From positions 1-54,744 of the forward strand of contig JAGOJP010000001.1 in NCBI GenBank assembly GCA_017995055.1: a DNA stretch of 54,744 bases, given 5' to 3'. Below, in pieces: positions 16,137 to 16,676 of the stretch (position 1 is its first letter; each line of letters begins with the position of its first letter). The notes under the pieces were generated by a model. That model was not told where the DNA came from. It made no database searches and was given only the letters and a program-made list of their open reading frames with translations. Origin of the DNA: Candidatus Omnitrophota bacterium (GTDB lineage: Bacteria > Omnitrophota > Gorgyraeia > Zapsychrales > JANLHA01). Made by a program: the position numbers and the translations under genes.

Positions 16137-16676
16137 TTTATTCAATGAGCATTTAGTTTACACGACCTTAAGGGAGTGTAAACTAGAAATGCGAATTGAT
16201 CCTTCAGCGAATGAGCCCGGGCGAACGAGTCGAAGGATGCGGGTTTTAAAACACGACCTTAAGGGAGTGTAAACTAGAAATGCGAATTGATCCTTCAGCG
16301 AGTGAGCCCAGGCGAACGAGTCGAAGGATGTTGGTTTTAAAACACGACCTTAAGGGAGTGTAAACTAGAAATGCGAATTGATCCTTCAGCGAGTGAGCCC
16401 AGGCGAACGAATCGAAGGATGCGGGTTTTAACACACGACCCAAGGGAGTGTAAACTAGAAATGCGAATTGATCCTTCAGCGAGAGAGCCCAGGCGAACGA
16501 GTCGAAGGATGTTGGTTTTAAAACACGACCTTAAGGGAGTGTAAACTAGAAATGCGAATTGATCCTTCAGCGAGTGAGCCCAGGCGAACGAGTCGAAGGA
16601 TGTTGGTTTTAATAAGCCACAGCTGGCTGCGGTTAATTGCGTTCAGAGCTTGCTCTGGGGGCATACCTTTTATGCC
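16137..16676 (+). repeat. tandem array 1: 24-nt leader, 5 x 90-91 nt structured unit and a terminal hairpin module (candidate ncRNA or 5' leader)
   Basis: Unit landmark CACGACC at 16161, 16252, 16343, 16434 and 16524. Units are near-identical with no spacers. Each unit has hairpins AGTTTACAC..GTGTAAACT and ATCCTTC..GAAGGAT. The array ends with CAGAGC-TT-GCTCTG (16644-16657) and GGCATA..TATGCC (16660-16676). Confidence 0.9.

Follow-up and report, generated by a model that had tools for sequence, protein, structure and literature searches.

The window, the whole 54,744-nt stretch of Candidatus Omnitrophota DNA analysed here, carries a tandem array (array 1) immediately behind an ABC-permease gene. 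The permease ORF (14460-16136) ends with TGA, and TTTATTCAATGAGCATTTAGTTTA starts at 16137 directly after it. The original prediction of five head-to-tail copies is borne out by TRF, which reports a single array at 16160-16612 (period 91, 5.0 copies, 95% matches), and by the unit covariance model (CM), which places five units with scores of 92-105 bits at positions that agree with the predicted landmark starts. The proposed leader does begin directly after the permease stop codon at 16137, but its first four bases (TTTA) belong to the target or flank and lie outside the element. The closing module with G-CTTG-C hairpins is present, and nhmmer reads the locus as the module string ABABABABABC over 16138-16673.

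16137..16140, + strand: TTTA directly 3' of the ABC-permease stop codon, the preferred insertion target or flank
16141..16159, + strand: leader of array 1, the 5' half of module A, predicted to pair with the linker of unit 1
16160..16601, + strand: array 1, five tandem units, each with hairpin 1, linker and hairpin 2 (TRF, CM R1)
16160-16238, 16251-16329, 16342-16420, 16433-16510 and 16523-16601, + strand: the units of array 1 (unit CM R1)
16602..16676, + strand: tail (module C) of array 1, a variant tail with CUUG-loop hairpins followed by a U-rich end

As predicted, the window holds exactly 12 units (5 + 5 + 1 + 1), at 16.1, 18.2, 22.7 and 41.2 kb and all on the + strand; for the 25-nt unit core with ≤3 mismatches the chance expectation in the window is 0.00. 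Array 2 is a sister array of array 1 (repeat stretch 18227-18654). Elements S1 and S2 each have a single unit, matched by the CM at 22692-22768 (85.8 bits) and 41172-41249 (98.4 bits), respectively; the gene downstream of S2 is named from its Pfam annotation.

18163..18171, + strand: host promoter of the response-regulator gene, extended -10 TGCTATAAT, upstream of array 2
18208..18710, + strand: array 2, a leader-(unit)5-tail element within the response-regulator 5' UTR (gene start codon 18727)
18227-18304, 18317-18393, 18406-18482, 18495-18572 and 18585-18663, + strand: the units of array 2 (CM)
22479..22545, + strand: isolated tail (module C) fragment adjoining the yjbQ start codon (nhmmer C match)
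22629..22672, + strand: host promoter block TTGAGG-N17-TAGTAT ... ATATTTA, upstream of a hybrid histidine-kinase gene
22673..22841, + strand: S1, a diverged element with one unit (ABC), separating the histidine-kinase gene from the promoter block
41112..41140, + strand: predicted sigma-70-like promoter TTGTCA-N17-TACAAT, 12 nt upstream of S2 (read from sequence)
41153..41322, + strand: S2, an element with one unit (ABC), within the 5' UTR of an ADP-forming acetyl-CoA synthetase gene (start codon 41355)

The array is neither coding nor a CRISPR array, as had been argued: a period of 89-91 nt, junctions that differ in length by 1-4 nt and the lack of a long ORF speak against coding, and the units follow one another without unique sequence between them. 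Nor does it belong to a known RNA family, since Rfam 15 gives no relevant match to the window units either at gathering thresholds or at E ≤ 10.

Modular architecture and predicted fold

The element has the architecture leader-(unit)n-tail, which measures ~170 nt in the commonest form, n=1. The nhmmer module strings comprise ABC (19 cases), ABABC (three), ABABABC (three) and (AB)5C (two), besides AB, BC and C fragments, and the series (AB)nC thus spans n=1-5. The repeated unit is 89-91 nt long and contains two hairpins. The leader is conserved at 49 distinct 5' boundaries and is largely complementary to the inter-hairpin linker; hairpin 1 of the first unit can therefore lengthen to a helix of ~28 bp, and the leader variant of L084 is a perfect complement of the linker. 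Hairpin 2 had been described with a 26-nt purine-rich loop. This description needs refining, as the loop can itself stack into 2-bp steps that alternate with two tandem G.A pairs and end in a CCAR loop. The fold holds four conserved tandem G.A mismatches, whose columns are conserved in 68-73 of 74 units, and CUUG tetraloops (G-CUUG-C in 35 of 58 tail loops). Loops are hypervariable beside near-invariant stems, and the linker is near-invariant as well.

The view of the unit as a structured, strand-specific module agrees with a fold comparison of both strands: in 15 of 16 elements the + strand is the more stable (-56.0 vs -49.5 kcal/mol, p=6e-5, mean z -3.5), and array 1 as a whole folds with z=-7.4 relative to shuffles. 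Every unit has a single GAAGGAUG or CAGGAUG motif and a single AGGGA motif. In the predicted fold both are paired, GAAGGAU as the 3' strand of hairpin 2 and AGGGA within the stem of hairpin 1, so the earlier expectation that the GGA motif is paired holds. A closing helix between leader and tail (UCAAUGA with UCAUUGA) was rejected because tail variants are uncompensated, and the automatic RNAalifold consensus was set aside because it misses hairpin 2. An internal promoter in hairpin 1 (TTTACA-N15/16-TAAACT) was likewise rejected; most copies have a spacer of 15 nt, and in L036 TGAACT replaces TAAACT, so that the -10 A is missing.

Covariation was assessed for the whole element and for the unit, in which 91.6-92.8% of cells are paired. 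Double changes in paired columns do not exceed those in shuffles (269/500 and 359/500). With 33/500 controls as good, the score for covariation is marginal, and the hypervariable middle of hairpin 2 co-varies with z=-1.5 (112/2000 permutations as good). Stem mismatches are more often G.U than A.C overall (90 vs 34) and are balanced once two inherited polymorphic sites are removed (36 vs 32); the sporadic mismatches hence look neutral. Conservation of orthologous copies does not exceed that of their flanks (identities of 0.75-0.86 and 0.77-0.95, respectively), while paralogues average 0.82. Truncated copies also exist.

Insertion sites, dispersal and orientation

Syntenic regions of three relatives (L107, L108 and L109; helicase 78-88% identical) contain no module by HMM or CM. 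They are empty at the sites of array 2, the C fragment at yjbQ and S1, and still have the promoter blocks found upstream of S1 and array 2 in the window; the block before the histidine-kinase gene is kept in 5/5 genomes, whether the element is present or not. As the element-free relatives keep the same host promoters, the element has inserted into existing 5' and 3' UTRs. Both element ends are sharp. TTTA ends 27 of 41 independent 5' flanks, against a background of 0.6%, and in L107 and L109 it already stands at the S1 site, which is empty there. Alignment of empty and occupied sites reveals no target-site duplication (TSD), and sequence 3' of the copies is not conserved. As for terminal inverted repeats (TIRs), only a 6-nt imperfect match (TCAATG...CTTTGA) is found. 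L068 carries an extra full copy relative to L040. No autonomous parent or transposase is found in the window or between separated A and C modules, and tblastn with approximate IS200/IS608 TnpA queries finds no match in 0.53 Mb of host DNA, a small part of these genomes.

The units are widely dispersed within few genomes. A related metagenome-assembled genome (MAG), CAZAXH01, has real units at ≥12 loci and is the only one of 185,579 species representatives in which they occur, and the activated-sludge assembly UPTA01 has ~35 loci at a uniform coverage of 6-8x. No copies are found in the viral contigs, plasmids and phages searched. Judging from these searches, only a narrow clade within Candidatus Omnitrophota carries this family. 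Omnitrophota are an uncultivated phylum known almost entirely from MAGs, and to our knowledge their non-coding content is essentially unexplored; in the Omnitrophota literature, the complete-genome survey does not mention intergenic or interspersed repeats.

All 59 catalogued elements are intergenic, and the neighbouring genes are unrelated, with copies in both 5' and 3' UTR positions. Copies often lie immediately behind a stop codon or terminator, or else separate a gene from its host promoter. In 17 of 40 cases the copy begins ≤30 nt after the upstream stop codon, and further copies directly adjoin the T-tract of a terminator or the 3' end of a tRNA, which leaves no room for a promoter of their own. 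Several copies lie 5-25 nt ahead of a start codon, which argues against the tail being an efficient terminator.

Random orientation of genome-wide copies relative to genes had been named as the mark of a plain REP- or MITE-like element. The copies are indeed dispersed, but 80-86% are oriented with neighbouring genes or the G-rich strand: the upstream gene is co-stranded in 40 of 50 cases, and the G-rich strand carries the element in 51 of 59. This G-rich-strand bias is confounded with transcription because 82% of coding sequence lies on the same strand, and the cases that can separate replication-linked from transcription-linked orientation are split 3 vs 3.

A probable BOX-like repeat and its relation to known systems

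Array 1 is not a locus-specific or one-off regulatory RNA gene. It is probably the five-unit form (n=5) of an interspersed repeat that is modular and non-autonomous, resembles BOX, belongs to a narrow Omnitrophota clade and is transcribed passively. The family is previously undescribed, while the kind, a BOX-like interspersed repeat, is already known; the element does not overturn the current understanding of bacterial repeats.

The BOX element of Streptococcus pneumoniae and S. suis has the structure boxA-(boxB)n-boxC, and strains differ in n (Croucher et al., 2011, PMC3049150). Like BOX, the Omnitrophota element is a small, non-coding, dispersed intergenic repeat in which a varying number of tandem internal modules is flanked by one 5' and one 3' module. 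In both, the same locus has different n in different strains or species, stem-loops are predicted when the element is transcribed, copies lie in UTRs and within operons, coding capacity is lacking and the mobilising enzyme is uncertain. As Omnitrophota are an unrelated phylum, this likeness is an analogy and we claim no homology. Furthermore, boxB measures 45 nt, whereas the Omnitrophota unit has 89-91 nt and two hairpins, and in contrast to BOX the Omnitrophota element lacks long inverted-repeat ends, sits 3' of TTTA without duplication, contains tandem G.A motifs and is strongly biased in orientation. Unit number might change as in boxB, by slippage or unequal recombination between the 91-nt units.

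Without a promoter of its own, the element would be transcribed passively inside host mRNAs. In these, the + strand is expected to form stable irregular hairpins, namely the leader:linker helix, hairpin 2 with its tandem sheared G.A pairs and, in the tail, a pair of CUUG-tetraloop hairpins that precede a U-rich end. The most plausible roles of these hairpins would be to protect 3' ends, to terminate transcription leakily or to serve as processing sites, depending on context. Insertion of the element reshapes the UTRs of signalling and metabolic genes.

IS200/IS605-derived PATEs and REP/RAYT elements are mobilised as single strands by HUH Y1 transposases. Like the Omnitrophota element, they lack TIRs and TSDs, insert 3' of a short specific sequence, also head-to-tail beside an existing copy, and carry subterminal hairpins that are imperfect, with strand-specific mismatches. 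Their folding strand lies mostly on the lagging-strand template, a likeness qualified by the fact that for the copies studied here replication bias is inseparable from transcription bias. Insertion 3' of TTTA without TSD or inverted ends, together with the strand-specific G.A mismatches, makes the element a candidate substrate for HUH-type single-strand mobilisation, and we know of no such system characterised in Omnitrophota. Spread would most likely depend on a trans-acting, single-strand-specific (HUH-type) transposase that reads the folded + strand. Unlike in PATEs and REP/RAYT elements, no tnpA, tnpB or RAYT gene is found in the Omnitrophota DNA examined, and those elements are not known to have an internal tandem module. 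The left and right hairpins of the Omnitrophota element are dissimilar as well, which is unusual for IS200/IS605 ends and counts against the preferred interpretation.

ERIC/IRU, Correia (CREE) and RUP elements are likewise structured repeats of 100-170 nt in transcribed intergenic regions and can alter mRNA stability, processing or termination. They have clear TIRs and TA-like TSDs, both absent from the Omnitrophota element, and lack an internal tandem module. A classical DDE-derived MITE was rejected since TIR and TSD are missing, even though presence/absence polymorphism is seen at orthologous sites.

Alternative readings and the number of units

A biased orientation and hypervariable loops beside near-invariant stems are not obviously to be expected of a purely neutral repeat, and some selection at the RNA level is therefore possible. 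The element might be a domesticated cis-acting RNA module, whose folded + strand with tandem G.A pairs binds a dedicated RNA-binding protein or RNase, such that carrier mRNAs are co-regulated and arrays act with high avidity. The strand-specific fold would fit such a role, as would near-invariant G.A columns and linker beside freely varying loops, the co-orientation of 80% of copies with flanking genes and the 5' UTR position of three of the four window copies, two of which precede two-component signalling genes. We nevertheless consider this reading unlikely. Orthologous copies are conserved no better than flanks, covariation is marginal, sporadic stem mismatches appear neutral, neighbour genes are heterogeneous and flank copies in both 5' and 3' positions, and the orientation bias equals the gene-strand bias of the genome itself. 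Moreover, no candidate partner protein is found in the window or in the 0.53 Mb of host DNA. It is more doubtful still that the domesticated modules constitute a post-transcriptional regulon peculiar to this clade, in which a dedicated protein reads the G.A motifs and arrays serve as high-avidity sites or sponges. If so, dozens of mRNAs, including those of several two-component signalling genes, would be under its control. The unrelated neighbours and mixed 5' and 3' positions also leave the earlier suggestion of a multimerised cis-regulatory leader unsupported; a riboswitch or similar leader was rejected for want of a coherent gene set and because, in addition, covariation is not significant.

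Alternatively, each locus might be an independent gene for a trans-acting sRNA or protein sponge (CsrB/RsmZ-like or NsiR1/LhrC-like), with arrays supplying many motifs. As in CsrB and RsmX/Y/Z, a GGA motif (CAGGAUG or GAAGGAUG) is repeated and a genome has more than one such locus; in addition, AGGGA recurs once per unit, good -10/-35 boxes precede some copies and tails resemble terminators. However, the promoters ahead of S1 and array 2 are already there in relatives without the element and serve the downstream genes, 17 of 40 copies sit too close behind a stop codon (≤30 nt), and the internal promoter-like sequence has the 15-nt spacer in most copies and no -10 A in L036. Unlike CsrB and RsmX/Y/Z, the element has its GGA motifs in predicted stems, its loci lack promoters of their own, and neither the Csr/Rsm models nor the rest of Rfam match it. 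Dozens of decaying copies per genome, missing from close relatives, are unlike any sRNA family. Hence, we regard sRNA or sponge genes as improbable. Tblastn with approximate CsrA and Hfq queries gives no match in 0.53 Mb of the incomplete host genomes, an uninformative result. The CsrB-type sponge of the original prediction finds no support, given paired GGA motifs, dispersed single units, syntenic relatives that lack them and no Rfam match; a tandem sRNA gene of the NsiR1 or LhrC type fares no better in view of dozens of intergenic, mostly single-unit copies and of empty relatives that keep the promoters.

A role at the DNA level only, as binding or recombination sites (REP/BIME- or attC-like) that have no function as RNA, seems very improbable. 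The conserved strand-specific mismatches and the presence of the folding strand on the G-rich strand (lagging-strand template) in 51 of 59 elements would suit such sites, and in L084 an imperfect palindrome is corrected to a perfect one, as in replicating single-stranded DNA. Yet there are no cassette arrays, attC R'/R'' boxes are not visible in the sequence, G-CUUG-C tetraloops and a U-rich 3' end are typical of RNA, and copies inside transcription units are transcribed whether or not this is relevant.

Returning to the BOX-like repeat, variation in n is observed at single sites: one orthologous site has n=1 in L040 and n=4 in L068, and array 2 has n=5 in the window, ~1.3 units in the MAG locus L016 and none in L107-L109. 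Only one assembly spans both arrays, and their exact copy number is therefore not secure; elsewhere array 2 has two units (L002) or an N-gap (L007), and five contigs break inside it. That the five-unit arrays are mis-assembled one- or two-unit elements, as the single spanning assembly and the collapse, gap and breaks elsewhere might suggest, is nonetheless highly improbable because ≥4 distinct unit variants (GAGCTC, GAGACC, GATCC...) recur across independent assemblies, n=2-4 elements occur at many other loci and in other genomes, and short-read assemblers are expected to break or collapse at genuine tandem repeats. The element indeed breaks short-read assemblies of these genomes, and it could serve in strain typing, as BOX does.

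The array as the five-unit form of a modular element

All four loci in the window follow one plan: a conserved leader, n units and a tail. Each lies on the + strand. The five copies predicted for array 1 are resolved by Tandem Repeats Finder in the one short-read assembly from which this copy number comes; other assemblies collapse or break arrays, and at least four distinct unit variants nevertheless recur.

Loci in the window
16160-16612, +: array 1, period 91, 5.0 copies, 95% matches; five units (16.1 kb)
18227-18654, +: array 2, period 89, 4.8 copies; five units (18.2 kb)
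22.7 kb, +: S1, one unit
41.2 kb, +: S2, one unit

Parts of the element
Leader: conserved at all four loci, TTCAATGAGCATTTAGTTTACAC
Unit, part 1: hairpin 1, ACAC-GA-CC[loop]GG-GA-GUGU
Unit, part 2: near-invariant linker, AAACUAGAAAUGCGAAUUG
Unit, part 3: hairpin 2, AUCCUUC...GAAGGAU
Tail: two G-CUUG-C hairpins, ending ...CTCTGGGGTTYATACCTTTGATT

As the original prediction had it, the 24-nt leader begins right after the permease stop, at 16137, directly 3' of the TGA of ORF 14460-16136 (558 aa, permease-like), which sits after an ABC ATPase gene and has no Pfam match of its own at E<=1e-5. The 12 units were located by a search of the window for the 25-nt hairpin-2 core combined with a fuzzy linker search. 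A covariance model of the kind originally proposed, built on 30 diverse units, recovers all 12 (86-105 bits) and no other sequence of the window. The array has no match in Rfam 15, either at gathering thresholds or with the cutoff set to E<=10, in keeping with a unit outside the known RNA classes.

The part of hairpin 2 first described as its loop can be stacked as GC-GA-GU-GA-GC[CCAR]GC-GA-AC-GA-GU, in which tandem sheared G.A pairs alternate with 2-bp steps. Most of the leader is complementary to the linker (UCAAU-GA-GCA against UGC-GA-AUUGA), and thus the first unit is able to form one long irregular helix, which can hold a fourth tandem G.A. In a three-unit element elsewhere (L084, 974-1045), the linker of the first unit complements the leader perfectly: UC (TC in DNA) replaces GA and an AA bulge is lost, giving a 22-bp perfect stem and confirming that leader and linker face each other. 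This stem resembles the product of quasipalindrome correction through template switching and would imply that, at least now and then, the hairpin forms in single-stranded DNA.

The array belongs to a dispersed family and not to one locus. A hairpin-2 core scan of one genome per species (185,579 species) found true units in just one, MAG CAZAXH01 (labelled 'Planctomycetales'), at no fewer than 12 loci on five contigs; the remaining 46 were chance matches, each on its own in a GC-rich genome with the rest of the unit absent. A linker-pattern scan of metagenomes yielded 40 stretches, a lower bound since the window's own source is missing from the stretches returned. About 35 come from the activated-sludge assembly ENA UPTA01, where coverage is 6-8x for every element contig and many of the elements are found at the end of a contig. 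No copy was found on the viral contigs, plasmids and phages scanned. Helicase homologues of the window carry the name Candidatus Omnitrophota, and hence that phylum is the best placement for the hosts.

Profile HMMs for leader plus hairpin 1 (A), linker plus hairpin 2 (B) and tail (C) return the strings ABC (19 times), ABABC (3), ABABABC (3) and (AB)5C (2, both being the window arrays), besides scattered AB, BC and C fragments. As ABC is the commonest string, the window array represents the n=5 form of a usually n=1 element. A weak tail-profile match (E=0.044) just 3' of the helicase in a distant relative from groundwater (64% identical; L110 12054-12102 and L111 10278-10326, - strand) is probably due to chance.

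The closest known counterpart is pneumococcal BOX (boxA-(boxB)n-boxC), which is dispersed and intergenic, varies in n between strains and has predicted stem-loops (PMC3049150). Unlike the element, classical MITEs (Correia, ERIC, RUP) have inverted ends and target duplications. CsrB/Rsm sponge, tandem sRNA gene, riboswitch leader and CRISPR each fail at least one defining test; this upholds the earlier exclusion of CRISPR and leaves the sponge and tandem-sRNA readings unsupported. The Omnitrophota complete-genome survey does not mention such repeats. The element is a new family within a known, BOX-like kind of genomic object.

Insertion sites, orientation and copy dynamics

All 59 catalogued elements are intergenic, with sharp boundaries at both ends. 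In 17 of 40, no more than 30 nt separate the element from the stop codon of a gene that lies upstream in the same direction; the gap to the next start codon is 5-25 nt for many copies. TTTA immediately precedes the element at 27 of 41 independent sites (background 0.6%), and sequence 3' of the terminal ...GATT shows no conservation. At least six copies adjoin the T-tract of an intrinsic terminator and one a tRNA 3' end.

Three syntenic relatives (about 20 kb each; helicases 88%, 88% and 78% identical to that of the window; two contigs with long-read-style names) contain no A, B or C module by HMM or CM. They retain both the promoter block CTTGAG...CTGTTAGTATAAATATAAATATTTA that precedes the hybrid histidine-kinase gene and the response-regulator extended -10 TGCTATAAT. 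Hence, the 'promoters' ahead of S1 and array 2 belong to host genes. S1 lies directly 3' of ...TATTTA of the histidine-kinase block in both window and MAG, and comparison of its empty and occupied site reveals no target duplication. In the window, array 2 is placed between the response-regulator promoter and start codon, array 1 in the permease 3' UTR, and S2 downstream of a TTGTCA-N17-TACAAT promoter and ahead of the acetyl-CoA synthetase start codon. Compared with the close relatives, the element is an insertion into host transcription units.

The 5' UTR between the response-regulator promoter and array 2 also holds a terminator-like hairpin (18183-18203, +; UUCCGGCUAUUUCAGCCGGAG, then UUUA), which the MAG shares; the sequence at this place differs in the relatives without the element. 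At L041 (~3811-3912, - strand) and its orthologue L091, an element lacks inner hairpin 1 and tail, and a tRNA-like sequence was read by eye about 40 nt further on. Another copy (L083, 9560-9600) begins right after a tRNA-like 3' end (GGTTCGAATCC..., likewise read by eye). Copies beside tRNA genes may hint at target choice.

The gene upstream has the same orientation as the element in 40 of 50 cases, and the gene downstream does so in 37 of 45; 51 of 59 elements lie on the G-rich strand, and 82% of coding bases at the loci are on the element's strand. Informative cases for transcription-linked versus replication-linked orientation number only three against three. The window itself has a GC skew of +0.127 and 35 of its 39 long ORFs (>=120 aa) on the + strand, an asymmetry unusually strong for a bacterial chromosome segment.

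Across three host species, orthologous sites usually all carry the element; their flanks are 80-96% identical and n differs: n=1 in L040 versus n=4 in L068 at one site, and about 1.3 in L016 versus 5 in the window at another. One L068 site has an extra complete copy head-to-tail with a partial one (joint ...CCTTTTATT followed by CAATGAGC...), and elsewhere two species keep different remnants. Orthologous copies (identity 0.75-0.86) are conserved no better than their flanks (0.77-0.95) and are similar to random paralogues (mean 0.82). This pattern fits a burst of spread shortly before the host species split, followed by drift.

Fold and possible mode of spread

The master sequence is predicted to fold on the + strand. 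The array has a fold z of -7.4 against shuffles and single elements a mean of -3.5; the + strand is the more stable in 15 of 16 elements (-56.0 vs -49.5 kcal/mol, p=6e-5). Each of the eight G.A positions is retained in 68-73 of 74 units, and paired cells amount to 91.6% and 92.8%. The family is too uniform to give more than weak formal covariation: double substitutions are not in excess of shuffles, the unit covariation score is marginal (33/500 controls) and the two sides of the hypervariable hairpin-2 middle co-vary only at z=-1.5. After removal of two inherited G.U polymorphisms, sporadic mismatches are balanced (G.U 36 vs A.C 32). Most individual copies show no detectable structural selection.

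IS200/IS605-type elements are single-strand 'peel-and-paste' elements. Like them, the element inserts 3' of a tetranucleotide, lacks target duplications and long inverted ends, has subterminal imperfect hairpins with strand-specific mismatches, and has its folding strand mostly on the probable lagging-strand template, a bias that it shares with the coding sequence; its end hairpins, however, are unlike each other. By analogy, it might have spread by IS200/IS605-like single-strand transposition. No transposase was seen in the window or between separated modules, nor did approximate query sequences match one in 0.53 Mb of DNA from the hosts. The unit would most simply multiply in tandem by slippage or unequal recombination, as also proposed for boxB (PMC3049150). 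Given their position inside host transcription units, copies are predicted to be transcribed, and the stable hairpins and U-rich end would presumably shield 3' ends, act as weak terminators or become RNase targets. Copies just ahead of start codons argue against efficient termination.

Other genes of the window

The exosome-type RNA helicase architecture found here is more typical of eukaryotes and archaea; this helicase is conserved in many Omnitrophota (thousands of homologues at E<1e-50). Two ORFs, of 1248 aa (2272-6018, +) and 343 aa (4-1035), have no Pfam match at E<=1e-5.

19305-21257, +: Ski2-like DEAD/DSHCT (NUC185) helicase
26569-28462, +: RtcB RNA ligase and adjacent archease, a pair kept downstream in the syntenic relatives
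1208-1942, 18727-19119, 22952-25540, 29803-32774, 43492-45189: signalling genes

The dense signalling set comprises two GGDEF proteins, four receiver-domain proteins and two Cache/HAMP histidine kinases, and two of the four repeat loci lie in 5' UTRs of signalling genes.
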